Origin: Eubacteriales bacterium
GTDB taxonomy: Bacteria; Bacillota; Clostridia; Oscillospirales; JAAYXM01
NCBI GenBank assembly: GCA_045614365.1
Contig: JAZLCV010000102.1
Coordinates: 1-43,964 of the forward strand
Reading direction: 5' to 3'
DNA length: 43,964 bases
The notes under the pieces were generated by a model, which was not told where the DNA came from, ran no database searches, and saw only the letters and a program-made list of their open reading frames with translations. The position numbers were made by a program, and so were the translations under genes. Positions 18,694-39,811 of the stretch are shown in pieces (the first letter of the stretch is position 1; the number at the start of each line of letters is the position of its first letter).

Positions 18694-18771
18694 TATGTTG
18701 ATAAAAGACATTCACCCGCGACGATGTATTTTTTGTCGCGAAAACTCAACTTACATAAGGAGCGTATTGTT

Positions 18772-23900: not shown

Positions 23901-26900
23901 TCTGCTGTATATATTGCAAGCTGCTTATAGCTTTCGGCAATAATATTTGTATCCGATGGCATAACACGGTATGTTCCCATCATTCCCTGGTCGCCTATTG
24001 ACTGCGTTCCACGATGCAGATCAATCATATCGTTATAGCAGGTAAGCATCGTTATATATTTCGGATTTCTCCAGAGGTTTTCCTTTTCAGTCAGCTCGCC
24101 CTTGTACAAGCCGAGCGTCGTAGCCACAGCAACGGTATCCTCAATCCAGCCGTAGTTGTAGGATGATGAGGATTCTGTTCCCTGACCGTCACGCGAAACC
24201 TGATTTACAATCTTATAAAGAAGCTCGCCACCGGTGTTGAAGGTTTTGCCAGCCGTTGATGTGTTCTGCTTGCTTTCCACGAACAACCAGTCTATCATCT
24301 CACGCGAATACGGTTCTCGGTCATATACAACAGCAGCATTTGCCACTGCCGCCTGATGCATACCAAAGTTTCCGTTTACATCTCCCGCCATCGCCGCACT
24401 GTATATCTCATAGATGAGGTCACGCTCGATATTATCACGTATGTTCTTGTTGGAGTTTTTGGGAAGCCTTGCTTCTCCCGTTACCTGATGCACTGCTATT
24501 CCGTAATACTCCCGTTCTTTTTCGGCAAGAAAGCTTTGTACCTCGGGGTCATCATACATCGGCCAGAACGCATCATATGCCGTTGAGAAGCTTATAGCAA
24601 AGTTTGCATCCCAGATATCATTTGATATTTTGCCGGAATTGTGTGAGCTTGACGAGAATGCATAACGCAGCACATTCCAGTTTACGGTTTCGCCGTTGCT
24701 GTTTTTCCACTCGTTTGCGCTATATTCGGGATACAGGTCTGCAAGGCGGTCAATCAGGACCGCGCCGATCTTTCCATACTTTTCTTCACCTGTGTAGACA
24801 TACGCAAGCTTCAAAGAATCAATCGCTTCAATAATGGCGTTTGCTCCTGCATGCCAGAATCCGCAATGGTTGTAGTATGGTATAAAAGGCCACAAATCTG
24901 AAATTGCATCGCTTGTTTCCCATGCACAGCCCGGAGCATATCCCCAACCATCATCAACACACCAGAGCATACCGCTCTTGACCTCATCATATCCTCCGAC
25001 GAGATTGTATATCTTATGGTCTGCTTTTCCGTCGCTGTCGAGGTCTGCATTATAGCGAAACGGGTCTATGCCGTTAAACTCTTTTCCTTCAGTATACAGG
25101 TCGGTATACATATCATTTTTAAGATACCCTTGGCCGTAGCCGTAGTATTTATACCAGTTCGTAAGCTCGGTTCCATATTGATCGAAAAATGCGGTTGTAC
25201 CTGTCGGATCCACCATCTCCAGCTTTTCGCAATCACATTCAAAATCATGATTTTCCGCAAAGTCAGCCTTGTGGTAAATCATATTATGATGGCGCAAAAG
25301 CGCAAGAGCACGGTCAAACACGCCGTCGTTTCCGAGCCCCAGCTCATAGAACGAGCCGAAATCATTTGACGGGAAAAGGCGCTTGCATTCCGGGCACTGT
25401 ATTTTCCACGGACGTGTCAGCGGTGATGTGATCCACGGATACCCTGACTCTGCAACCTTGACTCCGCAATAACGGCAGACATATGTGGATATTTCATCAC
25501 CACGGCGGCTGAGCTGAATAGAACGCGGAATGCCCTCTCCCGCAAGCAGATTCCATATTCCTTCCATACCAAGGGCTACGTATTTATCTGCCTTTTCAAC
25601 CGCAGCATCCTTTTCGTTCTTTGCCCAGGTATATTTTTTGATGTTTTCTCGAGCAATCGCAATGCGTTCGTCCGTATAATACGTACGGCCTGCCTTACCG
25701 TGCGTGACGGTAATTGTCGCCGATGCTTCATACGGCACGTCGTCAAGCGTCGTAGTAACCGAAACTGTATAAACTCCTTCTTCTGCATCGGAGCCTATCT
25801 CTGCCGTGAACGTACCATTCTCGCCTTCCTCAAAGCTTACGTTAGTCTGCTCTGCGTCATAGTTCCACTCGATGCTGTCCCAAGATATATCGCCTGCGAA
25901 GTCATAACCACCAAGAGATACTGCTTTTATGCCAAGTATGATGCTCTCCCGCTCGCCGGGGCGCATAACAAAGCTGTCTCCGGTTATCTCAATGCCTGCA
26001 AGCTCTGAATAATCGCGCACATTAACCTCTACCGTCTCTGACCAGCTCTGTCCCTTGCTCTCGCCCGTGTTGTCCGTAAGCGTCATTTTAACGTGTGCCG
26101 TACCTAATTCTTTTGCCGTAACCGTGCCATCAGCTGCAAGGTCTATATATTCCCCGCCGTCTGAAAGTTCATATACGATCGCATAGTCCTGTCCTACGCC
26201 TGTAAGCGACGGCATAATCTCGTGAGAAACGCCGTTTTTAAACAGAATTGATGCCGAAAGAGCAACACTTTCGCCTTTGTTTATTTCATAGCTTTCCTTC
26301 ATCGGAGTGAGCGCCTTTATTTCAGGTATGCTCTCTGCCGCGAAAAATGCAATCGAGCCATAAGCCTGTCCGTAATATGTGTTGTTCACATACTCCATCT
26401 CACCCGTCACCGGATTGAAAACCTGCAAAGTACGAGTCTGGCAATCAAACGTCAGCGTGTGCGTTCCCTCTTCGATATAAAACGTACGGAAGGTTTCCGG
26501 CAGAATGTTATTGGATGTTCCTTTGTTGTAAAAGCAGAAATCTCCTGCATATACTCCATCAAGATAAATATCCACGTCCTCTGCCGCTTTTATTCCGTTT
26601 CCTTTTCCCGAAATGGAAATCGAGTAATATCCCGAGCGCGGAATTTTAACCTCAAGAACGCCCTTTCCTGTTCTTCGCGGAGTTACGGTAAGCCCGTTAA
26701 GATTAAGATTTATCGTCCCCTTGCTTGTGAGATCCCACGAAACAAATCTCCATCCGTGTTCTTCGAGCGTTGCGGCATATACATCCGTTATCGGCTGATT
26801 CATAAAATCAATGATAACGTGCTTGTCGTTATCGGTATTGACAATTTCTATATCAGTGCTGCCCGTTACTGTTTTTCCGTTATACGCTGCTTCGGCGCAG

Positions 26901-28093
26901 AGCTTTATGCCGTCAACACCCGCAGGTACCGTTATGTACCACTCGCTATTATCTTCTATTCCGTCAACGATGTCGTTTCCGCACTCAAACCATACGCGGA
27001 CAGAGGGTTGCGTCTCAAACTCCGTAATAACCGTTCCGTTTCTGTCCCTGAACGTGAGCTTCACACGCCGCGTTGCATATGCCGGAATTCTGTTGCCGCC
27101 GTCAAGAGAAACATCGACCGTGTGTATAGATTCGTCAATAACGGTTATTGTTGCAGAGCCGGTCAGCTCCACTCCTTCAACAACTGCCGTAGCAGTAATT
27201 GTTGCAGTTCCCTCGCCAATTCCCGTCACGGAATTTCCGTCAATTGAAATAATCCCGTTATCTTCTGTCGTATATGTAACCTCAGCATCAACAACCGTAC
27301 CACTTGCGTCTTTTACCACGCTGGAAAGCGTTGCCACCTCATTTTTCTTTATCTGCTCCTTTGAGGTTTTTACAAGCACGCGCGGGGTAAGCGTAAGCGA
27401 TGCTACCGACAGAGTTCTCGTTTGCCCTGCCTTTCCTTGATTAAAAACAAGAACATATTCCTTTTCCGCACTCAGCGTAACATCCTTTGCCGATTTAATT
27501 GTCATTGCTTTCGTTGCTGCGGTTGACTGTTTTATCATTGCCGTTCCGACAAGAGACTCGGACGAGATTCCAAGATCTCCGAACGCAAGTCCGCCTGTTC
27601 TTACAGACGAGCTAACCGTTCCATATGTATCACCACTTGCAAATGTCTCGGCAAGTTTTCCCTCAAGCGGGGCAATATACATCTCTAATGCTTCCGAGCC
27701 GTACTTCTGATGTGAGGCCGTACCCGATATGCTATAAGTGGCAGTTTTCGGAACTCTTATTTTAAAAGCAATCCAGTTATTTGCCGCCTGACGGCTTGTC
27801 TGCAAATACGCAAACGCCGCGACTACAGCAGTTGTTGAAGATGATGCAGCACCTGTAATATGAGAGCCGAGATATGCCCAGTTGCGGTCTGTTCCGTAGC
27901 TTGTAAAATACTTTTCACCGGATGCCGATTCCAGCGGGACCAATGCCGCTGTCGAAACAACATCATTATGTCCGTCTATATGAAAATTATAGTTTACGGC
28001 ATCTGTTTCCGTTGCTCCTGCAAACAGAACTGTTGTAGGCAACAATGATATCAGCATGCATATGCTTAAGATTAACGATAATGTTCTTTTCAT
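20993..28093 (-). CDS. SLH-anchored multimodular heparinase II/III-like polysaccharide lyase (~2366 aa)
   Basis: Signal peptide from ATG 28093 (AGGAG RBS); CBM-like and Ig-like modules; CRYCG..CPEC; HMHRD..DNGYP..SHNTVVINE resembling the heparinase II/III C-terminal domain; putative Ig (LPRGASF..TFTWKP); poly-Gly linker; three SLH repeats (ITRADF, ITRQDM, TTRAEV). Confidence 0.8.
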   Translation of the reverse strand: MKRTLSLILSICMLISLLPTTVLFAGATETDAVNYNFHIDGHNDVVSTAALVPLESASGEKYFTSYGTDRNWAYLGSHITGAASSSTTAVVAAFAYLQTSRQAANNWIAFKIRVPKTATYSISGTASHQKYGSEALEMYIAPLEGKLAETFASGDTYGTVSSSVRTGGLAFGDLGISSESLVGTAMIKQSTAATKAMTIKSAKDVTLSAEKEYVLVFNQGKAGQTRTLSVASLTLTPRVLVKTSKEQIKKNEVATLSSVVKDASGTVVDAEVTYTTEDNGIISIDGNSVTGIGEGTATITATAVVEGVELTGSATITVIDESIHTVDVSLDGGNRIPAYATRRVKLTFRDRNGTVITEFETQPSVRVWFECGNDIVDGIEDNSEWYITVPAGVDGIKLCAEAAYNGKTVTGSTDIEIVNTDNDKHVIIDFMNQPITDVYAATLEEHGWRFVSWDLTSKGTINLNLNGLTVTPRRTGKGVLEVKIPRSGYYSISISGKGNGIKAAEDVDIYLDGVYAGDFCFYNKGTSNNILPETFRTFYIEEGTHTLTFDCQTRTLQVFNPVTGEMEYVNNTYYGQAYGSIAFFAAESIPEIKALTPMKESYEINKGESVALSASILFKNGVSHEIMPSLTGVGQDYAIVYELSDGGEYIDLAADGTVTAKELGTAHVKMTLTDNTGESKGQSWSETVEVNVRDYSELAGIEITGDSFVMRPGERESIILGIKAVSLGGYDFAGDISWDSIEWNYDAEQTNVSFEEGENGTFTAEIGSDAEEGVYTVSVTTTLDDVPYEASATITVTHGKAGRTYYTDERIAIARENIKKYTWAKNEKDAAVEKADKYVALGMEGIWNLLAGEGIPRSIQLSRRGDEISTYVCRYCGVKVAESGYPWITSPLTRPWKIQCPECKRLFPSNDFGSFYELGLGNDGVFDRALALLRHHNMIYHKADFAENHDFECDCEKLEMVDPTGTTAFFDQYGTELTNWYKYYGYGQGYLKNDMYTDLYTEGKEFNGIDPFRYNADLDSDGKADHKIYNLVGGYDEVKSGMLWCVDDGWGYAPGCAWETSDAISDLWPFIPYYNHCGFWHAGANAIIEAIDSLKLAYVYTGEEKYGKIGAVLIDRLADLYPEYSANEWKNSNGETVNWNVLRYAFSSSSHNSGKISNDIWDANFAISFSTAYDAFWPMYDDPEVQSFLAEKEREYYGIAVHQVTGEARLPKNSNKNIRDNIERDLIYEIYSAAMAGDVNGNFGMHQAAVANAAVVYDREPYSREMIDWLFVESKQNTSTAGKTFNTGGELLYKIVNQVSRDGQGTESSSSYNYGWIEDTVAVATTLGLYKGELTEKENLWRNPKYITMLTCYNDMIDLHRGTQSIGDQGMMGTYRVMPSDTNIIAESYKQLAIYTAELEESLKTVDEAVRAELEEKISGYQKTKTQLAQLLYEIAVKGKNFALEDLHYDIFTKNPDSLYSDIEKEIDAFGEYNYDRSSMMTGYGFASLRAGALYNNVLGTSTIKDTTRDFWMYFGGATSHMHRDFLNIGIDAYGISMSSDNGYPERTGAYPSRHQWTNVTLSHNTVVINETSSVKPEDPAKPLHFDNKDTRVRLMDVDGSTTYQTADDYRRTVMMIDYDDEISYGVDFFKVLGGEDHIYSFHASSNTVAETTGLDSIEHQVDENGNYIGTYAGTDARFGNDPWTNTSNQYVPLKYPSGYTWLEKIRKDNDPDMNFSVDYKISDMRKLSRNNSSLMDIHLKVTTANDWKADEVTLAQSVPTRKDDWDKVINRIEYLLVRRKAKADEKLDTLYTTVFEPYNKTPYIKNIDRIEMVPVNGENLGADKAAAVRVELIDGRVDYVMYATRKDITYTIADTTVGTDTEGYSFLFCGFAGVWTVKSVDGKLENIYSYLHDGTLIGNEDNEQTDALTGKVTWHTKGLSIVNKAQVEFDEPISKALLKMMNDEKTSLSGRIFVGETDSPGNAAFIIEDAEISEDGKTAILSFGNVTFVDSYDSYEDDTYNYIINEGTRFAIPMSYEEDNAPEFDEPGNITSSAGSSLKLTVRAESQVEDGIVTYSARTLPRGASFSAETATFTWKPDGSQVGESLVAIDATDSLGRTSTLYFTVTVYGSTTGGSSQDKTDTTETPEAGNTDTPAAGGGGGGGGGAAPDDKPHDTTGDTTDTDENGNEDAATQPNVGFSGSDEPKFTDLGNHAWAADAINALAADGIIKGMTASTFNPESNITRADFALLLVRAFKLSSDNTENFADVMVNDYYASELAIARNNGIIGGIGDNKFAPRNSITRQDMMVIVYRALQILNVGFGIYDEPQNEDFATIAPYAKEAVSALVGSGIVNGKSGLIAPTDYTTRAEVAVLLKRILDYVAGKS
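21168..21196 (-). repeat. REP-like GTAG palindrome in-frame within SLH gene (encodes VGFGIYDEP)
   Basis: GTAG-GGTTCG-GCATTTATGA-CGAACC-GCA; lies between SLH2 and SLH3. Confidence 0.75.
21539..21565 (-). repeat. REP-like GTAG palindrome in-frame within SLH gene (encodes VGFSGSDEP)
   Basis: GTAG-GGTTC-AGTGGTTCCGAC-GAACC-G; 21/27 identical to 21170-21196; immediately before SLH1. Confidence 0.65.
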
Positions 28094-28144
28094 AAAATTT
28101 CTCCTTATAAACAGCGTTTGTGATCTTTCAGCGAACCTCAGGAT

Positions 28145-28185
28145 GAAATGTGGGAGAATGAACACCGTCCATCCTCCCCCATTCC
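28145..28185 (-). other. Intergenic RNA stem-loop between the two large surface-protein genes
   Basis: 18-bp stem with three G-U pairs that form only in the minus-strand transcript; no U tract. Confidence 0.65.
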
Positions 28186-28194
28186 GATGTATTA

Positions 28195-31100
28195 TCAGTC
28201 AGAATAAATCACTTTATAGGAATTATCCGTATCTTTATAAATCATATATCCGCGGGCTATGTAGCTGCTGTCTGTCGGACGTGCGGTAAACTGACCGTGG
28301 TCAAGTCCGCGTGAAGACGTGAATTTCTCATCACAGCTTTCAACACTCGGAGTTCTGTTTCCAAACAGAATACCAACTTCTACAATTTCGTATCCGGACG
28401 AAGCTTCATACTCAATCATATATCCACCTTCAATTGTGGTGTCTTCAAGCACAACCAGAGGTTTGGGAACAACAGTTGCATATGATGAGTAGATACGCGT
28501 TGCATCCCACACATAATGCGTGTATTCTTTATTGTATGAAACTATTTTTCCGTCACGCAACCAATGGGTAACGTTTGCTCCGTCATTGCATACAATTTCC
28601 GTAGCATAAGGAATCGCAACAACATTGTCTAAACTACTTTCCTTTCCGTCCGCGCCAACTTTCTTTCCGTTTACGGTAATAATTTCACTTACCGTCAATT
28701 CCGTATACTGTGCAACAGCCTTTGTCGGCGCGATGATCTCTTCGACGCTTGAAAGTACCCCGTTTTCCGTTTTCCAGTTTAAGAAGTTAAATCCGGTAAG
28801 CTTCATTTCCGGAAGCCCCTTCGTTGCAAGAATGGATTTTGCAATTGCGCCAAGATACGAACCATCCATATTCCAGAATTCAACAGTCGGGTCATCGGAA
28901 TGTGCCGGGTTTTCCTCTTCATAAACTGCTGTAAGGAATGTGTTGCTGTAAATTGCGTAAGTGCCGTTTTGGCTAAGCTCTAAGATAAACTTTTCAGAAT
29001 CTTCCACAAGCCCGTTTGCATCCGCAGAATAAACTCCGCGTTTCCAACCGATAAATTCGTATCCCTCAACCTCCGGAGCAGAAACTGAAATCTTATCGCC
29101 GCGCTCTGCGGAAATTACCTTGTTGTTGCCAATAACGCCGTTCACGCTTATCTTTGCCTCAGGAATATTAGCCGTTGCAGAAAAGCTGAGATTCTGCGCG
29201 TTGCCGGTATAGCCATCAGCCTCTTTTTCTTCTTCCGGCTCACCCTCTTTAAGAGTGATTCCCGCAAGATTCAAAAACTGCTTTGATGAATTTCCGGTAA
29301 TGTTATTGCTGTTAAAACTGAATATCATATAATAGTCGCCTGCGGTCTTAAAGTTGTAGTTGCCTATATCTCCGTCAACCTTATCCGTTACTCCGCAAAC
29401 TCTGCCGATGATGGGTAAAGTTTTTAATGTATCAGATGTAATATCAGCTCTTATTTCAGAAACAGGAACAATATAAATATCTGCTTCTGCACCGGTTACA
29501 ATACCAATAATATCAGCTGTTATATCATAAGTTCCGGATACAGGGATGCTGAGTTTCAACACAAACCGCGCATCTGCATCATCCGTATGCTGCAATGTTT
29601 TGCGCCCTACCATCTGAATGTATCCGCTTTTATTTAAATTTGACGCACTTTTTTCGCTGTCTACTTTCTCTCCGTCGGAGTCTTCTATGCTGTTAAAGGC
29701 TCCACCAAGAGTAGTTATCGCCCACGGGAGAGTTTTCGCGGTATCTATATAAGCATAATCACTCAGCCAACTTGAATCGACAACCGTGTCACTGTCTGAA
29801 TCATAGAATGGTCTGCCATACTGTGTGAAGCTTGCATTCTCGAGAATATCTCCTTTAAGAACATCAACAGAGAATATATAGTCATAAGTTTTGACTGAAA
29901 CAACAATTTCAATTGTATCTGTCACGCTCTTCCCTTCAACACTCGCCGTCGCTGTGACTAAAGCCGTTCCTTCTTTAACACCTGTTACCTTATTTCCGCT
30001 AATTGAAACGCAATCGGAAGTAGTTGTATATGCAACAGAAGTAGTTGCTGTCACATCATCTGCCTTTGAATCTGTAATAGTACTTGAAAGCGTTGCAGTC
30101 TCTCCGACGAGGATATTGGTTTTATCCGAAGAAACTTCTATCGTGGGTTCAACTACAAGTTCTCCTACCTTCTTAAGCTCAATAGAATCAATATATGCAA
30201 AATATTTATTTCTAGCGTTAAGTGTCGCCTCTGTACCATCCATCGCAATCACGAGATAGTATGTTTTGTTTTTGAGACCAACCTGCCCACCAACATATGG
30301 CGAATCTGTAGTCGCTGCAGTTGATGTGTTTACTGCTGATGCTATCGTTTTTACAACAGGTGTAACGTTTGCTGCATCAGTAATTACGTTAGCTACTGCA
30401 TTAAATATTCCGTCATCTGACATATCCCACGCTTTGCCAGTCACGGGGTCAATGGTATCAGGGTCTACAATATAAGTGCTTATCTTGCCGCCGTTTGCCA
30501 GTTCTGTATAATTCAATATGGGTATATATGTGCCCTTTTCAGGTACTGTTATTGTAAGCACAATACCATTTGTTCCAAGCTCTGTATAGCTGTGGCTTGC
30601 ACGAATTGTAAGATATGTTGCACCAAGGTTTATATAGTCAAGACGTCTGTTCCCTATATATCCCCACGCACTTGATACCTGCGGGTTTATAGTAAAAGTT
30701 CCGCCATTAAGCAAATCAACAGCCTCATCCTCAGTCGTTGCAGATGTATCAAATTCATATGTATATTTCTTAGCGTTTATCGTAATTTCTATTGTATCTG
30801 TTACTGCCTTTCCGTCAACAGTTGCGGTTGCAGTAATCGTTGCAACACCGTCTTTTGCACCTGCCACAACATTTCCGGATATTGAAACGATGTCTGTATT
30901 CTCAGTTGTGTATGTAACACCCGGTGTTACTGTTGCTCCTGTTGAATCTGTAACAACACTTGAAAGGATCGCTTCCTCCCCGATTAAAAGTTCTGCCTTA
31001 TCGGAAGAAACTGTAATTGTCGGCTCAGCAGTTACAGCCTGAGGAGTGAGCGTAAGAGATGAGGGGAACATACCGGCTGCTGTAGCACTAACAGCATTGA

Positions 31101-31758
31101 ATAAAACTATGTTTTCTCCTGCTGAAATCGACATTTCTACGCCTGTAATAAGTTCCATTTCAGAAGCTGTAGAACCACTCTTGTAGAAAGACACATTTCC
31201 CACCTTTGCAGTTTCCGGAATATTTAAATATTCAAAGCTTGCAGCTTCTGTTCGAGCCGCATTCGCAACAGTTCCGTAAGTTGTTACATTCCCTTCTGCT
31301 AACTTTGCCTCAAGCTCTGCTGTTATAGGCGCAATATATAAATCAGCGCTATTAGAGAATGTTTTTTTCTTATAACCGGTAGCAGATACCATGTATTTCC
31401 CGCTCTTCGGAACATTTATTCTAAGAGCAATCCATTCACCTGTTTTAGCCGAACCCGTCTGAATATAAGAACCAGTGACAACAGTAAACCCTTTAGTATC
31501 ATTAGCAGGTGTACTTATTGTCGTACCACAATAAGCCCAGTTTGCTCCCGCATCAGTAGGCTCTGCCGGATAGTTTTTATATGCCGCAAGCCAAGTTCCT
31601 GCAGCGTTCTCCATATAAACGGCTTCGGTTGAACGTATGTTATCCACCTCAAACTCATACGTAATCGCACCCGTTGTTTCATCCACGGCTGCGAAGGTTG
31701 TTGGCATCATTGCCAGAATCATTGTTACTGCGAGGAAAATTGATAAAAATCTTTTCAT
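28195..31758 (-). CDS. Secreted multimodular protein (CBM-like + Big_2 Ig-like repeats; InlB-B-like C-terminal region), function unknown
   Basis: Signal peptide MKRFLSIFLAVTMILAMMPTTFA; two EPTIxVSSDK..VSISGNxV.G..G.A..TATA.V.GK.VTDTIEI repeats; no catalytic motif, SLH or LPxTG recognised. Confidence 0.7.
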   Translation of the reverse strand: MKRFLSIFLAVTMILAMMPTTFAAVDETTGAITYEFEVDNIRSTEAVYMENAAGTWLAAYKNYPAEPTDAGANWAYCGTTISTPANDTKGFTVVTGSYIQTGSAKTGEWIALRINVPKSGKYMVSATGYKKKTFSNSADLYIAPITAELEAKLAEGNVTTYGTVANAARTEAASFEYLNIPETAKVGNVSFYKSGSTASEMELITGVEMSISAGENIVLFNAVSATAAGMFPSSLTLTPQAVTAEPTITVSSDKAELLIGEEAILSSVVTDSTGATVTPGVTYTTENTDIVSISGNVVAGAKDGVATITATATVDGKAVTDTIEITINAKKYTYEFDTSATTEDEAVDLLNGGTFTINPQVSSAWGYIGNRRLDYINLGATYLTIRASHSYTELGTNGIVLTITVPEKGTYIPILNYTELANGGKISTYIVDPDTIDPVTGKAWDMSDDGIFNAVANVITDAANVTPVVKTIASAVNTSTAATTDSPYVGGQVGLKNKTYYLVIAMDGTEATLNARNKYFAYIDSIELKKVGELVVEPTIEVSSDKTNILVGETATLSSTITDSKADDVTATTSVAYTTTSDCVSISGNKVTGVKEGTALVTATASVEGKSVTDTIEIVVSVKTYDYIFSVDVLKGDILENASFTQYGRPFYDSDSDTVVDSSWLSDYAYIDTAKTLPWAITTLGGAFNSIEDSDGEKVDSEKSASNLNKSGYIQMVGRKTLQHTDDADARFVLKLSIPVSGTYDITADIIGIVTGAEADIYIVPVSEIRADITSDTLKTLPIIGRVCGVTDKVDGDIGNYNFKTAGDYYMIFSFNSNNITGNSSKQFLNLAGITLKEGEPEEEKEADGYTGNAQNLSFSATANIPEAKISVNGVIGNNKVISAERGDKISVSAPEVEGYEFIGWKRGVYSADANGLVEDSEKFILELSQNGTYAIYSNTFLTAVYEEENPAHSDDPTVEFWNMDGSYLGAIAKSILATKGLPEMKLTGFNFLNWKTENGVLSSVEEIIAPTKAVAQYTELTVSEIITVNGKKVGADGKESSLDNVVAIPYATEIVCNDGANVTHWLRDGKIVSYNKEYTHYVWDATRIYSSYATVVPKPLVVLEDTTIEGGYMIEYEASSGYEIVEVGILFGNRTPSVESCDEKFTSSRGLDHGQFTARPTDSSYIARGYMIYKDTDNSYKVIYSD

Positions 31759-31779
31759 TTTTGCCTTGCCTCCTTAAAT

Positions 31780-32670
31780 TTATATATTCAAAAGCTTTTC
31801 AGCATTTTTTCGGATAATCTTTTCGTATGTCTCCGTGCTTATCATTTTGTCGTTCACCAATCCGGTGAGGAATTTATCGAAAGTATACTGGAAGGTCTGT
31901 GCCGCATGGCAAACGTCTGCGCCGTAGTATATTCTGTCGGAGAATTCCGTAAGAAATTTTGCAGCATAATCCGGATCACGCATCATAGCGTTTGAACCGC
32001 TGCCTGCCGAGAGGTCACAGTAAAGATTTCCATACTCGCGCATAAGCTCCGCAAGGTGACCTTCCGTAACCTTTCCTTTCGGATAACCGTTGCGGTTGTC
32101 CGTATCATTGTTTTTGCTTATTTCCCACCAGAATGCGGCAGAATGACCGATAAGCTTAAGATCGGGATGTTTTTTCAGCATCTTTTCAATTCTCGGTAGT
32201 CCCGGGTCGTCTATAACGCCGTAGGTGCCGCCAAAATGTGGTCCGACGTGGATAAGCACCGGCATATCACACTGAACGCAATGGTAGAAGAAGTTATCCA
32301 TCAAATCGCTGTCGGCATACAGCTGAGCTGTAACCTCTCCAACACCTTTTGCACCGAGTTCTTTATAGTGACCTATGTATTTACTGAGGTCTGTTTCCGG
32401 ACTGAAGCGACCGGCGCGCGGGTCAACATTACAAAACCAGGTGAACCTGTCGGGGTATTTGTCAGCAATATACTTACAGTTTTCTGTTGGCATAGCTGCC
32501 CACTGCCCTTCCGGTGCCGTTATCGGAAGAAGAACTGCAAAATCAACATCTGTTTTATCATGAATCTCTATCTGTTCTTCCACGGACAGAAGCTGAGTTC
32601 CCGTCAAGTGATATTTTGGTGAATACTCAGGAAACAGAATAACGTGAGAATGGATATCAATTTTCTTCAT
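31780..32670 (-). CDS. Amidohydrolase-2-type metal-dependent hydrolase
   Basis: IDIHSH, KGVGE, PVLIH, LIGH, CDLSAGSG, IYYGAD. Confidence 0.85.
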   Translation of the reverse strand: MKKIDIHSHVILFPEYSPKYHLTGTQLLSVEEQIEIHDKTDVDFAVLLPITAPEGQWAAMPTENCKYIADKYPDRFTWFCNVDPRAGRFSPETDLSKYIGHYKELGAKGVGEVTAQLYADSDLMDNFFYHCVQCDMPVLIHVGPHFGGTYGVIDDPGLPRIEKMLKKHPDLKLIGHSAAFWWEISKNNDTDNRNGYPKGKVTEGHLAELMREYGNLYCDLSAGSGSNAMMRDPDYAAKFLTEFSDRIYYGADVCHAAQTFQYTFDKFLTGLVNDKMISTETYEKIIRKNAEKLLNI

Positions 32671-32720
32671 TTTTTCATCCCTTCAAATCGGAATTTCGAA
32701 CGCTTATGCATTTGACATTG

Positions 32721-32764
32721 TTTGCAGTGTGTGAAAGCACACTGCAAAAGGGATATCCCTTTTG
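32721..32764. promoter_or_regulatory. Two overlapping inverted repeats in 5' leader
   Basis: TTTGCAGTGTG-TGAAAG-CACACTGCAAA (32721-48) overlapping perfect 20-bp palindrome CAAAAGGGAT|ATCCCTTTTG (32745-64). Confidence 0.6.
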
Positions 32765-32781
32765 GCATTTTTATATTGTAT

Positions 32782-32834
32782 ATTTTAACTTACAGCCACA
32801 CTCCATTTCCACTAAAAGCGTTTACAAATCGGAT
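32782..32834 (-). promoter_or_regulatory. Regulon promoter 1 with upstream 15-bp box
   Basis: ATCCGATTTGTAAAC-N8-TGGAAA-N18-TAAAAT. Confidence 0.8.
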
Positions 32835-32862
32835 AATTCAAATTGGTAACATCTTCTCTGCT

Positions 32863-32891
32863 TTGACAAGTGAGTTCATATATGATATATT
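32863..32891 (+). promoter_or_regulatory. Sigma-A-type promoter of AraC gene
   Basis: TTGACA-N17-TATATT with TG extended -10. Confidence 0.7.
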
Positions 32892-32926
32892 TAAAATATC
32901 TTAAAACAAGGAAGAGGTGCGTGGCT

Positions 32927-33871
32927 ATGAAAACAAACTACAGCATAGAGACCACTGAAGTGCTGAACAAGCTTCCGATAAGCATTTCAACCTTATGTTT
33001 CCGCGCTTTGGAAAATCTTGATCACATTCACAGCTACACGCATATTTCCTTTGTCATTGCAGGAAATGCCAATGGCATAATCGGCGATACGGAATATACC
33101 TTCCCGGCAGGCTCCGCATCAATTAGTGCTCCCTATCTCCCCCATTCTTTTGACACAAGAGAAAGCGATGACACTCCGATTGTTGTTCACATCCGCTTCG
33201 ACGATGCATTTTTGACAGATCGCGGATACCGTTTTTTTCACTATAACAAAACACTGCGTTTTGAAGAGCGTACAATTCCTGATTGCGTTTGCTTTTCCGG
33301 CGCAAACAAAACGAAGGCAACCGGGCTGATCCGCTCTATAACAGCAGAATTTGAAAAAGGCAAAAATATGTCGTTTGACCTCATAGCAAAGAATCTTGCT
33401 GAATTTCTGCGTATGACAGCTGAAGAAACTCCTCAAGAGCCAATTCCGTTTCTTACCACAGAAGCTATACGGTGTATAACCAAGGCTGTAAAATATATTA
33501 TCGCTCACCACGCAGAAAAGCTGTCCATTGATGATCTACTTCCGATTACCGCGATGTCCAGAAGTCTTTTCACAAAACACTTCAAAGCCATCACCGGAAT
33601 GACATTTGTGAATTTTCTTACTGCTGTGCGCTTAAGTCACGCACTTCCGATGGTTCTCACCGAGGAAGACATGTCTCTAAACGAAATAGCTGCAAAAACA
33701 GGGTTGTATAACAAAACCAACCTTGTCCGCATATTCACTAAAGCCTTTGGTATGCCACCGATAAAATTCCGGGAACATTTTGAAAAAAGTTCACCCGGAA
33801 CAATGGAACGTCACAGGATGTATCAAAAACGCTGGAAATGGCTGTTTGAAGATAAGCCCAAAAAAGATTAA
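32927..33871 (+). CDS. AraC family transcriptional regulator
   Basis: Cupin-like HIHSYTHISFV..PYLPH sensor; C-terminal MSRSLFTKHFKAITGMTF..EIAAKTG..FTKAFGMPPIKFR. Start at ATG 32927 after GAGGTG. Confidence 0.92.
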   Translation: MKTNYSIETTEVLNKLPISISTLCFRALENLDHIHSYTHISFVIAGNANGIIGDTEYTFPAGSASISAPYLPHSFDTRESDDTPIVVHIRFDDAFLTDRGYRFFHYNKTLRFEERTIPDCVCFSGANKTKATGLIRSITAEFEKGKNMSFDLIAKNLAEFLRMTAEETPQEPIPFLTTEAIRCITKAVKYIIAHHAEKLSIDDLLPITAMSRSLFTKHFKAITGMTFVNFLTAVRLSHALPMVLTEEDMSLNEIAAKTGLYNKTNLVRIFTKAFGMPPIKFREHFEKSSPGTMERHRMYQKRWKWLFEDKPKKD

Positions 33872-33905
33872 CAGAGCGGCTCTCAATAAAAGAGCAGCTC
33901 TGTTA
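33869..33905. terminator. Stem-loop between convergent genes
   Basis: TAACAGAGC-G-GCTCT..AGAGC-A-GCTCTGTTA. Confidence 0.7.
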
Positions 33906-33909
33906 TGCT

Positions 33910-34806
33910 TTATATTTTAAAAATTGAACTGTAAACGGACTTGAAATAAGCAAAATCCTGCTCCGCAAAATATCTTCTGTCCCCCGCGCGCGGCGCTTCA
34001 ATCCCTATCGGCCCGTCAAATCCCACCTCATTCAGCTTTGCAAGGTATGTACGGTGGTTAATCTCGCCGTCGGAAAGAGGTTTTCCCACGCGCTCCCCTG
34101 TTCCGGGGATTGCAGAAGAGTTTTTCAAATGCGTGTAAAACAGCTTGTCACCATATATATCGATTGTATCTTCAAGGCTCGGATGTTCCTTGAAATAAAC
34201 GGTGTTGCCAAAGTCCATATTTACGCCTATTGCCGGGCTGTCTATAAGGTTAACAAGTTTCATCGTCTTCTCCGGCGTATCGTGTATATGTAGCATATGG
34301 GTTTCAAAGCCGAATTTCATGCCAAGCTTTTCAGCTTCACAAGCAAGTCTTTGATATGCTTCAACGGTAAACTTCCACTCTTCTTCCGTTGCAACCGCAC
34401 TTCCGTGGAACTCATACACACGCGGCGGTGCAGTGGGTATGCTTGACCTGAGGGTGGGGGCAACGGTATTGCAAATCACTGTACCGCAAATTTCGCTTGC
34501 AAGACGCGCCTTTTCTATTGCATCGGCAATATCTTTTTCGCGCACCATCTTATCGCTGTCCGAGCACTTGTACATATGTATTCCGAAAAGAACATCCGAA
34601 AGCCCGTATTTTTTCTTTGCCTTTGCAATTTCTTCTGCATACTCACGAAAGCTGAGAGAATCAAGCTCCTTTGGAGGATTGCCGCGAAACTCTATGCCGT
34701 CAAATCCGATTTCTGCCGCCATCCTGCAAATATCATCAATTGTCTTGTTTCCAATAAGACAATAAGCTGTTTCCGCATAGTTTATATGCATTATCGCCTT
34801 GTTCAT
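33910..34806 (-). CDS. Sugar phosphate isomerase/epimerase (TIM barrel), paralog 2
   Basis: Collinear with 18772..19659; GFDGIEF, FETH, NMDFGN, THLKN, IGIEAP. Confidence 0.88.
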   Translation of the reverse strand: MNKAIMHINYAETAYCLIGNKTIDDICRMAAEIGFDGIEFRGNPPKELDSLSFREYAEEIAKAKKKYGLSDVLFGIHMYKCSDSDKMVREKDIADAIEKARLASEICGTVICNTVAPTLRSSIPTAPPRVYEFHGSAVATEEEWKFTVEAYQRLACEAEKLGMKFGFETHMLHIHDTPEKTMKLVNLIDSPAIGVNMDFGNTVYFKEHPSLEDTIDIYGDKLFYTHLKNSSAIPGTGERVGKPLSDGEINHRTYLAKLNEVGFDGPIGIEAPRAGDRRYFAEQDFAYFKSVYSSIFKI

Positions 34807-34827
34807 ATTAAAGCTTCTCCATTGATG

Positions 34828-36180
34828 TTATGATTTTTTGCTGTGATTGAATCTGAACCAGCCACCGAGAGCGCCCTTGTTGCCCTCGTCACCGGCAATC
34901 AGCTCTTCGTGGTTTTCAACAACCTTTTTAAATGCAGCAATATACTGGTCAATTATTTCAGGTCTGTAATGCTTGAACCACGGCAGGAAGAACGCCCGCT
35001 CGTTAATAATTGAAGCTACGGACAAATCCTTATCGCCCTCACGGATATCTTTGTCGGAAAATGCGCGATAGGTAGGCTTGCCGTCGTGGTATACGTCTGC
35101 CATTGTATGTACCGGATGGGTATGAAGCGGACGGTTTACCCCTGGATTTACGGCAACTCCCTCTGCACGCATTGCCTCGCAGAAGCGGGTGATTGAAAGA
35201 CCGCCAAGCTCATCGGGGTTATACCTGATTACCGGAACATACCAGCCCGCCATGGTGGAACCATCACTTTCGTCTACGTGTACAAGCTTTATTCCCGGAA
35301 TATCCTTAATTCCTGCCTCAAAGTATTTCACAGCTTTGTTAATCTCTGCACAGCGTGCGTCGTAGTGTTTAAGCTGAACCCTGCCCATCGCGGCGCTTAC
35401 CTGATGCATTCTGTGTTTAAATCCACCGAGAGGAATACCCATATATTTTTTCAGATCCTCCGACTGCAAATCGTATGTATAGAAGCGCTCGTATGAACCA
35501 AATGCAACTGCGCGCTCATATATCTCCTGATTATTAGTCCAGAGCATTCCTGCCTCACCTATTGCAAAGGATTTTCCGGACATAAGCGAAGCTGCACCGA
35601 TATCACCGATTGTTCCAAGCATTCTGCCCTTGTACTTGCCGCCCTGCGCGTGAGACACGTCCTCAATAACCTTGAGGTTGTGTTTTTTTGCAATTGCCAT
35701 AATTGCATCCATATCTGCCGGATATGCACAATAGTGAACAACCATAATTGCCTTTGTCTTATCCGTTATCTTTTCTTCAAGCTTTTTCGGGTCAAGGCAG
35801 AGCGTTTCCGGATCAACATCCGCAAAAACGACTGTCGCGCCAAGCGAATATGCGCTTGTGCAGCTTGCCCAGAAGGTTATGCTTGGGCAGATGATTTCGT
35901 CTCCTCTTCCAAGGCCGCATGCAAACATCGCCGCATGAAGCGCCGCTGTTCCGTTGTTTGTGCCGAGGGCGTACTTTGCACCCGTCCATTCGCAGAATTC
36001 GCGCTCAAACTCACGCGTGATATCCGTTCCGCTCATTGCGCCCTTGTTGATAACATCAAGCACAGCTTCACGGTCCTCATCCGTAACAACAGGCCATTTG
36101 AACATATCGCTTCCGTCGGTCTTCCCCGTTCCAACATATGTTACCGCCGGCTCTCCGCCGAAAATTGCAAGCTTAGACAT
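34828..36180 (-). CDS. DegT/DnrJ/EryC1/StrS PLP-dependent sugar aminotransferase
   Basis: NGTAALH, GDEIICP.TF.AS, IEDVSHAQG, SLMSGKS (PLP lysine), GEAGML. Confidence 0.92.
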   Translation of the reverse strand: MSKLAIFGGEPAVTYVGTGKTDGSDMFKWPVVTDEDREAVLDVINKGAMSGTDITREFEREFCEWTGAKYALGTNNGTAALHAAMFACGLGRGDEIICPSITFWASCTSAYSLGATVVFADVDPETLCLDPKKLEEKITDKTKAIMVVHYCAYPADMDAIMAIAKKHNLKVIEDVSHAQGGKYKGRMLGTIGDIGAASLMSGKSFAIGEAGMLWTNNQEIYERAVAFGSYERFYTYDLQSEDLKKYMGIPLGGFKHRMHQVSAAMGRVQLKHYDARCAEINKAVKYFEAGIKDIPGIKLVHVDESDGSTMAGWYVPVIRYNPDELGGLSITRFCEAMRAEGVAVNPGVNRPLHTHPVHTMADVYHDGKPTYRAFSDKDIREGDKDLSVASIINERAFFLPWFKHYRPEIIDQYIAAFKKVVENHEELIAGDEGNKGALGGWFRFNHSKKS

Positions 36181-36206
36181 TTTAAATTCTCCTCTGTTTT
36201 AATACT

Positions 36207-37751
36207 TTATTTTACGCGATTGTATGCAGACTCGTATGCTGCAAGAACTTCTGCCACGTTCATTTCTTCAAGTTTTTTTACAAACGAATCAAAATCCGAA
36301 AGCGGTGCCTGACCAAGAATGAATTTGGTAAGCATTTCCTGAGTGTAGGTCTTAAGTCCTGTGTTGTATGTGTCAATGACCATCTGTTCATCATCGTTAA
36401 AGTCAAGCCACATTGTTACCGGATAATACGGGAGTGTATGCTCACGCAGCATTGCCTCAGACTCAAGTGTGGTTTCCGACTGTACTGCTTCTGCGGCAAG
36501 CGGGTCAAGACGCGTGAATGAGCCGTAGAGCTGGAAGCCGTAAAGAGTGTTCGGGCCTGAATTGTTTTCATCGGTTATAAACTTCTTTTTGCCATTTACA
36601 ACCTCATAGGTTTCTCCCTCTTTACCCCACGAAAGAAGCTCCATTCCTTCATCGGTATACATCCAGTCTATGAACTTTGCTGCATTTGCAATACCCTCAG
36701 CTTTTCCCGTGTCACAAACAGAAAGCCCCATAGTCTCAACATCACCTCGTTCTACCATAGCAACTCCCTTTTCGGAATTTGCAACAGGCGGAACAAATGC
36801 CTGAATTTTAAAACCGGGAATTTTGTCCTTTGCAAGGTTGTTGAAATGGTCGATACGAAGCTGTAAATGCGGCATAATAAACGTTCTGTTTGTAAGAACA
36901 AGCTCTTCAAACGCATTGTTGTTCATTGTAAGCATATCAGCAGGCGCAAGCTTTTCTTCAATCATCTTTTTGTAGAAGCTTACAACCTCGAGAGCAGTTT
37001 CTTCTGTTGCGCCCCAGCGCCACTCGTTATCGTCGTGATCGTAATACGCATCATACTCCCACCACTTGTCAAACGATGAACCGATTATGTCAAACACATA
37101 CGACATACTGCGCGTGCTATACGGATATGATTCCGGATACAGCTCTTTAAGTTTTTTGGACACCTCATAAATCTCATCAAAGGTTTCCGGTGCCTTCAGA
37201 TTGTGCTTTTTGAAAATATCCTCGCGGTAAAGCCATGCGCGCATGCGGGTTTTGCCTTCACGCCCCGTAGCCGGGGTGTAATAAATCTTGCCATCCTGTG
37301 TAACGCGGTTTTTTACGGCAACTGCATATTCATCTTCGGAAAGCGAGTTTTTCCATGCATTATATGCAGGCATATATGCTTCGAGGTCTTCAAGAGCGAT
37401 AAGCCCTTCTCCTGCATATTTCAGCGCATCACTGCCCATAGAAAATGCCATAATGTCCGGAAGCGTATCACGCCCCGCAAACATAAGTGACCATTTTGTA
37501 ACGGCATCTGTGGACGGAAGAGAATTTACCTGTAGCGTTGCGCCCGAACCTTCGGACATATACTCCCATAACTTCCAATCCTCACGATAGGGCCAGCTTG
37601 CATTGGACGGAACAAGCAGTGTTATAACATCGTCTTTTGTCAGCGGTTCTCCCGCTTCCACATCATCCAAAACTGCCCGATTTCCTCCGCAGGCAGAAAT
37701 CGCAAGCATCATGATGCATGCGAGAAGTAAAGCTGTAATTCTTTTAATCAT
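36207..37751 (-). CDS. Carbohydrate ABC transporter substrate-binding lipoprotein
   Basis: Lipobox ISAC; LPDIM, DGKIYYTP, YREDIFKK..PETFDE, WGKEGETYE, KFILGQAPLSDFD typical of clostridial sugar SBPs. Confidence 0.88.
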   Translation of the reverse strand: MIKRITALLLACIMMLAISACGGNRAVLDDVEAGEPLTKDDVITLLVPSNASWPYREDWKLWEYMSEGSGATLQVNSLPSTDAVTKWSLMFAGRDTLPDIMAFSMGSDALKYAGEGLIALEDLEAYMPAYNAWKNSLSEDEYAVAVKNRVTQDGKIYYTPATGREGKTRMRAWLYREDIFKKHNLKAPETFDEIYEVSKKLKELYPESYPYSTRSMSYVFDIIGSSFDKWWEYDAYYDHDDNEWRWGATEETALEVVSFYKKMIEEKLAPADMLTMNNNAFEELVLTNRTFIMPHLQLRIDHFNNLAKDKIPGFKIQAFVPPVANSEKGVAMVERGDVETMGLSVCDTGKAEGIANAAKFIDWMYTDEGMELLSWGKEGETYEVVNGKKKFITDENNSGPNTLYGFQLYGSFTRLDPLAAEAVQSETTLESEAMLREHTLPYYPVTMWLDFNDDEQMVIDTYNTGLKTYTQEMLTKFILGQAPLSDFDSFVKKLEEMNVAEVLAAYESAYNRVK

Positions 37752-37781
37752 GGCAAATTGCCTCCTTTTGTATTTTGTTTT

Positions 37782-37838
37782 ATTTTACAACACTTTTTAT
37801 TCCAATTTCAAACGAACTCGTTTACAAATCGGATTTTG
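37782..37838 (-). promoter_or_regulatory. Regulon promoter 2 with upstream 15-bp box
   Basis: ATCCGATTTGTAAAC-N8-TTGAAA-N18-TAAAAT. Confidence 0.8.
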
Positions 37839-37857
37839 ACAGAATATTTTTTCTCTG

Positions 37858-39663
37858 TTATTCAAAATCAAACGATATTACAGGGATTTTTTTTCCTTCT
37901 CCCCATACATCAACCGGAACAAGAATGAGTTTATCAACAGCTTTATCCACATTAATGTGATATGCGCGTTTACGGTTTTTTTCAATCCTTAGCATCTCAA
38001 CGCGCACACCTTCCTTTTCGCCGTAAAGCACAAACTCCTTACACAGAGTTTTGGGCATATGCATCATCGGGCTGTCAAGGCGTGTGTTGGCGCGGGTTAT
38101 ATGCCGACTCTCAACAGGGTTCATTTGCAGAGTTTCACGATTCAAATCACTGTCAAACACAACATGCACAGCAGATACCTTAGTCTGCGGAAAAGCGTAT
38201 TCTATCTCTTGCCCTTTAGCTGCATAATAGCAAAACTCTTCTTCACCGTATATAGCATGGAATCTGTCTTTCCCGTTTCTCAGCACGTTTTCTCCGGCAC
38301 TGAGAGCTGCACCCGCGCAGATTTCAGATATACTTCTCACCTTTGACGGGAGGAAGCAGTCCTCATTAAGAAGCTTTTTCTGCAAAAGCTCAACATAATC
38401 CATATAAACGCCGTGAGGGGTTGCGTTTTTCAGCACAGCTATCGCCGCAGCTTTTCCGACCGCCTCTCCGAGAAGCGAACACGTTGCCATAACTCTGATA
38501 CTGCTCATCGCCATATGCGTCATACTTATATTGCGTCCTGCAAAAAACAGATTTTCCACATTCTTTGAGTATAGTGCGCGGTACGGAATGGAATACGGTG
38601 CAGGAGTCTGTATATCGGTATTAGGCACGCCTCTGTGATAAAAACCGCCGGGATAATGATCATCTATCGGCCAGCCGCCAAAAGCGATTTCATCTTCAAA
38701 CACGCGTCCGTCGGAGATATCACGTTGAGTTATCATATACTCTCCACACATCCTGCGCGATTCGCGCTTTCCCGGAAGGAAACCCAGAAAATCAAGTTCC
38801 CAGTTTTCGCTTTTAAAATTGCCTGAATTTTTTATATAGTTCCACGTTCCGGTTGCAAGAGCGAGAAGCTCGTCCCTTATTTCTTCCGTATCACCGATGG
38901 AATCACGGTCACCTCCAAGCTCAAGATACCAGAAATTCTCAGCCGGATCATAGATATCGGGTGCACTGTTCTCCCAAACCTTATCGGGAGCTCTGTTCTC
39001 AAAATCCTTTTCAGTAAGCTTTGCGCTCCACTCCGGTGCGGTGTATTTGACCGCTCTGCAGGTTTCCCGCCCTTGAAGCAGACATGACATTCCCATCGTC
39101 ATATTATCCGGCTCTATGAGCATGGTATCCTCTCCAAACTCCGACTTCGCTTCTCTTCCTATGCGGAACTCTGCACCTGTAAGCGGAGCAAGAATGCTAT
39201 CGCCGGAGCTATCGCAGAAGAAGCTTGCGCTAACCTCGATAAAACACTGGGTCGTCATCTGGTATCCCGTAACTGACTTAATTTTTACGCTTCTTCCATC
39301 CGCAAATGCTCCGGTTTCTGTTTTTGCATCAATACATGTGCAATTAAGTAAAAGTGTAATATTCTTTTCGCGACGTACAAAATCATATAAGATTGTATCC
39401 CACACAGCATAGCTTTTGGTAGGGTTGCGATACAGGCTTTCAAGATAAATTTCTTCTAAAATCCCTGTTTCGCGATTGTTCTCCCCCTTAGCGTGACTTA
39501 TCCACATACGGATTTCGGATGATGCATTTCCGCCAAGCACCGGACGTTCATGCATTAGAACAACCTTTACCCCCTCGCGAGCTGCAGAGATAGCAGCAGA
39601 CAATCCCGCCATACCTGCACCTACCACGCATAAGTCGCATTCTAATTTTTTCTTTTTAAGCAT
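37858..39663 (-). CDS. FAD-dependent oxidoreductase (FAD_oxidored type)
   Basis: VVGAGMAG Rossmann motif, LGGNASSEIR, DSSGD, GKRESRR, IPYRALYS, FAGRNIS.TH. Confidence 0.9.
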   Translation of the reverse strand: MLKKKKLECDLCVVGAGMAGLSAAISAAREGVKVVLMHERPVLGGNASSEIRMWISHAKGENNRETGILEEIYLESLYRNPTKSYAVWDTILYDFVRREKNITLLLNCTCIDAKTETGAFADGRSVKIKSVTGYQMTTQCFIEVSASFFCDSSGDSILAPLTGAEFRIGREAKSEFGEDTMLIEPDNMTMGMSCLLQGRETCRAVKYTAPEWSAKLTEKDFENRAPDKVWENSAPDIYDPAENFWYLELGGDRDSIGDTEEIRDELLALATGTWNYIKNSGNFKSENWELDFLGFLPGKRESRRMCGEYMITQRDISDGRVFEDEIAFGGWPIDDHYPGGFYHRGVPNTDIQTPAPYSIPYRALYSKNVENLFFAGRNISMTHMAMSSIRVMATCSLLGEAVGKAAAIAVLKNATPHGVYMDYVELLQKKLLNEDCFLPSKVRSISEICAGAALSAGENVLRNGKDRFHAIYGEEEFCYYAAKGQEIEYAFPQTKVSAVHVVFDSDLNRETLQMNPVESRHITRANTRLDSPMMHMPKTLCKEFVLYGEKEGVRVEMLRIEKNRKRAYHINVDKAVDKLILVPVDVWGEGKKIPVISFDFE

Positions 39664-39689
39664 ATTTCCCCTCCGCGCTTTTTTTACTA

Positions 39690-39745
39690 ATTTTACAACG
39701 CATGCTCATTTCACTTCAAACAAAAGTGTTTACAAATCGGATTTT
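39690..39745 (-). promoter_or_regulatory. Regulon promoter 3 with upstream 15-bp box
   Basis: ATCCGATTTGTAAAC-N8-TTGAAG-N18-TAAAAT. Confidence 0.8.
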
Positions 39746-39748
39746 CGT

Positions 39749-39801
39749 AAAAAAGCACCGTCGCAAAGGTTAATTTTCACCCTTGCGACGGTGTTCTTTT
39801 T
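39749..39801 (-). terminator. Intrinsic terminator after ceramidase-like gene
   Basis: GCACCGTCGCAA..TTGCGACGGTGT stem flanked by A6 (U tract on minus) and T run. Confidence 0.8.
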
Positions 39802-39811
39802 AATATTGAAT

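Follow-up and report, generated by a model that had tools for sequence, protein, structure and literature searches.

A shared 15-bp box at three promoters of a putative glycan utilisation cluster in an uncultured Clostridia lineage points to probable local control by an AraC-type protein

Introduction

How might the surface-exposed and the cytoplasmic parts of a glycan utilisation system be brought under common control in Clostridia that have never been cultured? The question is raised by a 43,964-base stretch of DNA from a Eubacteriales bacterium of a Clostridia-type (gut-type) lineage (contig JAZLCV010000102.1, assembly GCA_045614365.1), analysed here over its whole length and called the window. 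Three promoters in this window carry the same 15-bp box, ATCCGATTTGTAAAC, and a gene for a putative transcription factor of the AraC/XylS family is encoded divergently from the first of them. An earlier note on this DNA had proposed that the box, its fixed distance to the promoter hexamers and the divergent gene together make up a regulon. We find that the locus would be best explained as a glycan utilisation cluster with a local regulon of AraC type. The box is very likely a functional regulatory site of some kind shared by the three promoters, and the adjacent AraC protein probably activates these promoters from a class-I-like site.

A shared box at three promoters

A search of the window for ATCCGATTTGTAAAC returns three exact copies, all on the minus strand. 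All three precede units of the cluster and none is found elsewhere in the window. The boxes, the promoters and the units that they head are as follows:

32820..32834, minus strand: box 1, ATCCGATTTGTAAAC, exact match, in the divergent intergenic region and 92 bp from the AraC start codon
32782..32811, minus strand: promoter 1, TGGAAA (32806-32811), 18-nt spacer, TAAAAT (32782-32787), score 9/12
20993..32670, minus strand: unit 1, defined by open reading frames (ORFs) and Pfam, with intergenic gaps of 21 and 29 bp
37820..37834, minus strand: box 2, ATCCGATTTGTAAAC, exact match, beginning 24 bp past the stop codon of the FAD oxidoreductase gene
37782..37811, minus strand: promoter 2, TTGAAA, 18-nt spacer, TAAAAT, score 10/12
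33910..37751, minus strand: unit 2, behind box 2, with a solute-binding protein (SBP), a DegT protein and an isomerase-like protein, defined by ORFs and Pfam/NCBIfam
39728..39742, minus strand: box 3, ATCCGATTTGTAAAC, exact match, immediately after the terminator that closes the preceding operon
39690..39719, minus strand: promoter 3, TTGAAG, 18-nt spacer, TAAAAT, score 9/12
37858..39663, minus strand: unit 3, behind box 3, an FAD-dependent oxidoreductase (PF12831) of 601 amino acids (aa)

Each copy of the box is followed by exactly 8 nt, by TGGAAA, TTGAAA or TTGAAG, by exactly 18 nt and by TAAAAT. The identity of the box in three promoters, the fixed layout N8, T(T/G)GAA(A/G), N18, TAAAAT and the non-palindromic, asymmetric nature of the box are thus as the earlier note had described them, and its assignment of the units that the boxes head agrees with the ORFs and Pfam matches. 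These three are the promoters ahead of catabolic units on the minus strand in this part of the window, and as they head genes for both surface and cytoplasmic proteins, they tie the extracellular and the cytoplasmic functions together, as had also been claimed. Taking the -10 hexamer as -12 to -7, the box occupies positions of about -59 to -45, and transcription would be expected to start near 32775, 37775 and 39683. The description of these promoters as having a weak -35 and an 18-bp spacer needs adjustment: the spacer is indeed their main defect, while a weak -35 overstates the case for promoters that score 9-10/12.

This arrangement is hard to obtain by chance. ATCCGATTTGTAAAC is the only 15-mer that reaches at least three copies in the window, and in 50 second-order Markov shuffles of the window no 15-mer at all occurs three times (0/50). 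The core promoter is similarly distinctive. TKGAAR-N18-TAAAAT, with at most one mismatch allowed, has four matches in the window, of which three are the promoters described here and the fourth (36805-36834, 1 mismatch) falls within the SBP gene. Looser matches to the box behave like background: 1.6 are expected in the window at up to 3 mismatches, and the two found, both with 3 mismatches (39810-39824 and 40763-40777), lie inside a ceramidase-like gene. The first of these is formed by the last codons of that gene (…AAATCCGGTCTGTAA), 82 bp upstream of box 3, and is kept in a related genome (L018, positions 1917-1931; see below); it is coding sequence, and its resemblance to the box is probably due to chance. 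Boxes 1 and 2 are spaced by exactly 5000 bp (32820 versus 37820), and we see no reason to regard this as more than a coincidence. A literature search with the 12-mer core of the box yielded no relevant paper, the 12-mer being contained in two unrelated eukaryotic papers only, as judged from their listing.

The likeness of the three promoters raises the question whether they might be copies of one ancestral module, in which the box would be identical by descent or gene conversion and would serve as a basal element, for example as an upstream contact of RNA polymerase. Over 65 nt, promoter 2 is 72% like promoter 3, and the type of -35, the spacer length and the -10 are common to all three. Yet the three 53-nt promoter stretches, with the box excluded, have drifted to 62-72% likeness, while the box is identical at 15/15 positions in the three copies. 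UP elements are of an A/T-rich type, and the box, with 5 G/C, is unlike them. Moreover, apart from two close relatives of the window, the box with a nearby TKGA occurs at chance level in 185,579 species genomes, which argues against a general promoter element. We consider this explanation improbable.

Two further readings start from parts of the box. At box 1, the sequence TTGTAAACGCTTTTA fits, with 1 mismatch, what we take to be the consensus of the catabolite-responsive element (cre), WTGNAANCGNWNNCW, a pseudo-palindrome of 14-16 bp, so that the right half of the box might be a cre bound by CcpA in carbon catabolite control. Only one of the three boxes comes within 1 mismatch of WTGNAANCGNWNNCW, however, and the pattern is common in the window (36 matches versus 26 expected). 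The invariant left part of the box, ATCCGAT, would lie outside any cre, and the invariant part is no palindrome. The reading was rejected and is most improbable. The other starts from TGTAAAC within the box, which resembles the AAC-type -35 motifs (TGTAAC, TGAAAC) of extracytoplasmic function (ECF) sigma factors, in which case the box would be the -35 region of an ECF-type promoter. Against this, the three copies share no CGT-type -10 at 16-17 nt downstream, the part that is shared, and conserved in the relatives, is TKGAAR-N18-TAAAAT, and no sigma or anti-sigma gene was found among 31 window ORFs scanned. ECF promoters, as well as sigma-54 promoters, were rejected by eye from the three promoter sequences; we give the ECF reading very little weight.

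The divergently encoded AraC/XylS protein

The gene beside box 1 starts with an ATG at 32927 on the plus strand, divergent from unit 1, and has a promoter of its own in the shared intergenic region:

32863..32891, plus strand: promoter of the AraC gene, TTGACA-N17-TATATT, near-consensus with a score of 11/12, 28 bp from box 1
32927..33871, plus strand: AraC/XylS-family regulator of 314 aa, with a cupin-like N-terminal domain and a DNA-binding domain with a pair of helix-turn-helix (HTH) motifs, candidate binder of the box

The protein belongs to the AraC/XylS family and follows its classical plan, with a putative sensor domain and two HTHs. Its AraC identity, already given in the earlier note, is supported by Pfam, by the annotations of relatives and by structure comparison. 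HTH_18 is matched with an E-value of 3.4e-16 (59.7 bits, cut-off 33.6) and HTH_AraC with 2.6e-10, whereas the matches of the N-terminus to Cupin_2 (E 0.003) and AraC_binding (E 0.013), in residues 32-81, both stay below the curated cut-offs. Sequence matches in the PDB are to the DNA-binding domains of AdpA, XylR and RamA. An AlphaFold2 (AF2) model built from 21 sequences has a mean pLDDT of 75 and shows a beta-rich region at residues 18-122, where pLDDT is mostly 70-86. In Foldseek searches, the full-length model matches ToxT, Rns and CsvR (E 4e-8 to 4e-6, template modelling (TM) score 0.36-0.47), the N-terminal part resembles regulatory domains, those of RhaR, BgaR and AraC (E 4e-5 to 9e-4), and the C-terminal part the DNA-binding domains of AdpA, SoxS and YesN (TM 0.78-0.86, normalised to the target). 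With the solved structures among the Foldseek matches, the protein shares a low sequence identity of 10-23%.

Relatives of the protein form 22 other clusters at E <= 1e-10 in a large protein collection. Twelve of these are full-length at 62-82% identity, two are short forms (226 and 228 aa; P0014 and P0015) and eight lie at 42-49% identity. All eight members of the last group carry a precomputed PF07883 annotation and 5/8 also PF02311. The two relatives that are named are proteins of Oscillospiraceae metagenome-assembled genomes (MAGs), and P0007 and P0008 are relatives at 67% identity. The HTH segments are nearly invariant in the 12 full-length relatives and different in the 42-49% group. As read from these alignments, such near-invariance is consistent with a DNA target shared among the close relatives, though it is also typical of the family.

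Conservation in related genomes

Conservation was examined by scanning 185,579 species genomes, a set to which the source genome does not belong, for the box followed by N{7,9} and TKGA, the spacings other than 8 providing a built-in background. The scan returned 19 loci, one per genome, with 7 at N7, 5 at N8 and 7 at N9. Among these 19, only two resemble the window (BLAST E <= 1e-5), and both have N8: L007, from a Eubacteriales MAG (contig JAZQFJ010000094.1), is an orthologue of box 1 and the AraC gene, and L018, from the Oscillospiraceae MAG SIG480, is an orthologue of box 3. Without them, 3 loci with N8 are left, so the pattern is at chance level elsewhere. In one of these (L016, Clostridiales) the box is flanked by the ends of genes and has no gene downstream of it, and it was taken as chance; the other 16 loci were judged by their flanks and BLAST only.

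In both orthologues the promoter elements are kept. Promoter 1 in L007 retains the box (15/15), the 8-nt gap (8/8), the -35 (6/6) and the -10 (6/6), with 13/18 spacer positions identical. Promoter 3 in L018 likewise retains the box, the gap (8/8), the -35 (6/6), the -10 (6/6) and 13/18 spacer positions. In both, the spacer changes cluster in mid-spacer. Since the two hexamers are fully kept while the middle of the spacer drifts, as real elements would give, the promoter reading is supported, and so is a functional site common to the promoters. The surrounding DNA was compared with neighbouring coding sequence. In L007, the intergenic block 32723-32898 is identical at 140/157 positions, the 19 positions fixed by the pattern excluded, and its AraC promoter region (32863-32898) keeps 32/36 positions; third codon positions are identical at 135/302 (45%) in the AraC gene, about 50% in the gene for a 1187-aa protein of unit 1 and 71% in the DegT gene. 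In L018, the promoter block outside the pattern positions is 55/63 identical versus 57-59% at third positions of the flanking genes, and the stem of the terminator ahead of box 3 is kept despite changes on both of its arms.

At the protein level, the AraC proteins of the window and L007 are 69% identical and the DegT proteins 93%. Within AraC, the DNA-binding half is better kept (101/128 residues) than the sensor half (109/174). Divergence is uneven, and the L007 locus looks modular or mosaic. Its gene order differs as well. Over L007 positions 1-2687, compared with window positions 31265-35733, promoter 1 and its leader run straight into the homologue of the 1187-aa gene with no amidohydrolase gene, and the DegT gene directly follows the AraC gene with no isomerase-like gene in between.

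L018 has undergone a larger rearrangement, in which 17.7 kb are missing relative to the window, and with them box 1, box 2 and the AraC gene. The deletion takes most of the FAD oxidoreductase gene, the SBP, DegT, isomerase-like, AraC and amidohydrolase genes, the 1187-aa gene and most of the giant SLH gene. Its joint is a 7-bp microhomology, CTGCTTC (L018 2661-2667, window 39075 and 21406), and is in frame, resulting in a 326-aa chimera with an FAD-binding N-terminus and an SLH C-terminus behind an intact box 3 promoter.

Which protein reads the box

The AraC protein is the likeliest binder of the box because, in a scan of 31 window ORFs, its gene alone encodes a transcription-factor DNA-binding domain, because box 1 lies within its divergent promoter region, and because the geometry of the box resembles that of a class I site. 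The earlier note had held that the placement of the box fits an AraC-type activator, and this has a precedent in the class I site of SoxS at zwf, where the box is located 7 bp upstream of the -35 (PMC9638938, in the excerpts used here).

Accordingly worded as a model, the box would be a cis-regulatory site common to three sigma-A-type promoters of one glycan or amino-sugar utilisation cluster, placed 8 bp upstream of a -35-like hexamer, with a good -10, TAAAAT, lying beyond a suboptimal 18-bp spacer. The two HTHs of the AraC/XylS protein encoded divergently from box 1 might read the asymmetric box through two elements separated by about one helical turn, one near TCCG and another near GTAAAC. 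Bound at such a class-I-like position, the protein would help RNA polymerase onto the promoters, acting as an activator rather than a repressor, and its inducer would be a breakdown product of the substrate that the cupin-like N-terminal domain binds. The predicted outcome is co-induction of surface enzymes, including the SLH-anchored giant protein, with the binding protein and the cytoplasmic enzymes.

Several observations weigh against this model. One box per promoter is visible: at offsets of -40 to +44 no second half-site stands out, the best value (23/45) being that at the -10, and cupin-type AraC proteins such as AraC, RhaS and RhaR are usually dimers on two half-sites. As the promoters score 9-10/12, dependence on an activator is not obligatory. 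L007 and L018 were found with an exact-match pattern, and conservation of the box in them is thus ascertained and no independent evidence. The orthologous comparisons show the whole intergenic block to be conserved and not the box in particular; on these alignments, the box is singled out by the comparison among the three paralogous promoters, not by orthologues. The L007 contig runs 16 kb onward towards boxes 2 and 3, yet gives one pattern match only. Therefore, the other boxes there differ at one or more specified positions or in spacing, or are absent, and strict identity is not universal.

The remaining points concern the pairing of box and regulator, and they also favour a different explanation, in which the box does serve regulation but is read by a protein whose gene lies outside the window. 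A second protein of AraC type, a response regulator whose output domain is AraC-type or a repressor might fill this role, and the adjacent AraC protein would have other targets or work via other sequences. Adjacency alone links the AraC protein with the box. In L018 the AraC gene is deleted, yet box 3 is kept. In L007 box 1 is kept, though its AraC orthologue lacks all of ATG, GTG and TTG where the orthologous start would be (about 775-800). The L007 frame is open and conserved from the orthologous N-terminus, its first listed start gives 226 aa, the form in the protein collection also has 226 aa, and a second genome has an annotated 228-aa form; the gene seems either to use a rare start codon or to be damaged at its N-terminus. 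Finally, an SBP gene without permease genes nearby suggests that parts of the system are located elsewhere in the genome. On the other side stand the absence of any second transcription-factor gene among the scanned ORFs, the position of box 1 in the promoter region of the AraC gene, and an asymmetric 15-bp site at a distance from the -35 that suits one AraC-type DNA-binding domain; moreover, the deletion in L018 may be recent. A regulator from outside the window is a minority possibility that we regard as unlikely, though worth keeping in view, and control by the adjacent AraC protein is the reading with which we proceed.

Genes behind the three promoters

The individual genes of units 1 and 2, the leader of unit 1 and the terminator ahead of box 3 are:

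31780-32670, minus strand: Amidohydro_2 protein, unit 1, behind box 1
28195-31758, minus strand: 1187-aa protein, unit 1, with a weak Big_2 match only
20993-28165, minus strand: 2390-aa surface protein with SLH, He_PIG and heparinase II/III-like domains, unit 1
36207-37751, minus strand: SBP_bac_1 lipoprotein-type binding protein, 514 aa, unit 2
34828-36180, minus strand: DegT-family aminotransferase, unit 2
33910-34806, minus strand: xylose-isomerase-like TIM barrel, unit 2
32671..32775, minus strand: unit 1 leader, structured, about 105 nt long, from promoter 1 to the start of the amidohydrolase gene
39756..39793, minus strand: intrinsic terminator of the upstream operon, 15 pairs and a T run, strong

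The operon upstream of box 3 encodes a PIG-L deacetylase, the gene of which runs past the end of the window, a NagB-like protein with a match below the curated cut-off, a GFO/IDH/MocA oxidoreductase and the ceramidase-like protein. Together with the DegT aminotransferase, the TIM-barrel protein, which is isomerase/dehydratase-like, the PF12831 oxidoreductase and the SLH protein with its heparinase II/III-like C-terminal domain (E 1.9e-6 in Pfam), this set of predicted enzymes points to breakdown of an N-acetylated amino-sugar polymer and not of a plant glycan; the NCBIfam matches of the set are all below their curated cut-offs. Beside the 514-aa binding protein, ORFs and Pfam reveal no permease or ATPase gene of an ATP-binding cassette (ABC) transporter anywhere in the window, and the membrane partners of the binding protein must therefore lie elsewhere. 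Paralogous functions adjoin the cluster at 17005-19659, where the minus strand carries two Amidohydro_2 genes and a gene for a xylose-isomerase-like TIM barrel is divergent from them; no box within 3 mismatches is present in that segment.

The three promoters differ in what surrounds them. Promoter 2 is followed by 30 nt from its -10 to the ATG start codon of the SBP gene, with the ribosome-binding site AAAGGAGG, and promoter 3 by 26 nt to the ATG of the FAD oxidoreductase gene, with GGAGGGG. The predicted terminator at 39756-39793 should insulate promoter 3 from the upstream operon. After the FAD oxidoreductase gene, ahead of box 2, there is no clear terminator, so that read-through from unit 3 into unit 2 is possible.

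Promoter 1 stands apart by its leader. The fold of this segment has a z-score of -4.2, with none of 200 shuffles as stable, and includes CAAAAGGGATATCCCTTTTG (32745-32764), which is a perfect palindrome of 20 bp, as well as a second hairpin of 8-9 bp (32723-32744) that still pairs in L007 through a change from G-C to U-A. Rfam yields no covariance-model match at the gathering score in the whole window, the leader included, and the window holds no further copies of the palindrome beyond chance. The leader could act as an element of RNA stability or attenuation, or as a DNA operator for a second, dimeric regulator.

Comparison with known systems

The closest precedent for the geometry of the box is the class I promoter type of SoxS, MarA and Rob. 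According to the excerpts of PMC9638938 used here, zwf has a non-optimal -35 with the SoxS box 7 bp upstream of it, and a single SoxS monomer reads two elements with its two HTHs and contacts the alpha C-terminal domains of RNA polymerase. The site at zwf and the marbox of MarA and Rob share with the present box its asymmetry, a division into two elements about one helical turn apart and a position upstream of a non-optimal -35 (8 bp here). All three copies in the window are asymmetric and keep one distance to the suboptimal core promoter that follows them, as a class I site would. SoxS and MarA differ in being bare DNA-binding domains, whereas the AraC protein of the window has a cupin-like sensor; furthermore, the box is unrelated to GCAC...CAAA, the host is Clostridia-type and binding is predicted here.

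With AraC, RhaS/RhaR and BgaR of Clostridium perfringens, the protein shares the domain plan and the location of its gene beside the catabolic genes that it would control. These regulators typically use two half-sites per promoter, whereas one conserved box is visible here. ToxT, Rns and CsvR are the best full-length structural matches of the AraC model. The likeness is at the level of the family fold, with 11-16% identity, and these proteins differ in controlling virulence genes and in having fatty-acid ligands. ToxT reportedly acts at some promoters through single asymmetric boxes.

As a gene neighbourhood, the locus resembles the Gram-positive polysaccharide utilisation loci (gpPULs) of Roseburia and Eubacterium rectale, in which a polysaccharide-degrading enzyme, a sugar transport component and an AraC-type regulator adjoin (PMC5320581, in the excerpts used here). 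Possible counterparts in the window are the SLH protein, as a putative enzyme of polysaccharide breakdown by its heparinase II/III-like domain, the binding protein of unit 2, as a sugar-binding part of a transporter, and the AraC-type regulator next to them. Unlike a gpPUL, the window has only the binding protein for transport, and heparinase II/III-like, PIG-L, DegT, GFO and FAD oxidoreductase proteins take the place of classical glycoside hydrolases. No operator motifs are given in those excerpts of PMC5320581 with which the box could be compared.

Significance

The type of regulation proposed here is ordinary and would not surprise a specialist. A more specific and rather doubtful proposal is that a narrow, Oscillospiraceae-like group of uncultured bacteria uses a cupin-type AraC protein with a single invariant box per promoter, in a monomer-style class I activation, to co-induce an amino-sugar-polymer system that has not been described before. 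This system would comprise the SLH-anchored 2390-aa heparinase-like protein, the deacetylase, a 3-dehydrogenase-like oxidoreductase, the DegT aminotransferase and the FAD oxidoreductase, as a module gained, trimmed and deleted among relatives.

Should the box be bound by the AraC protein, this regulator and the three promoter fragments would form a compact and directly testable switch from a Clostridia lineage of gut or rumen that is uncultured. In that case the box could be used as a probe for the missing parts of the pathway, such as the permeases and the promoter of the PIG-L operon, in a complete genome, and it would aid in assigning a substrate to an unusual set of amino-sugar-modifying enzymes.

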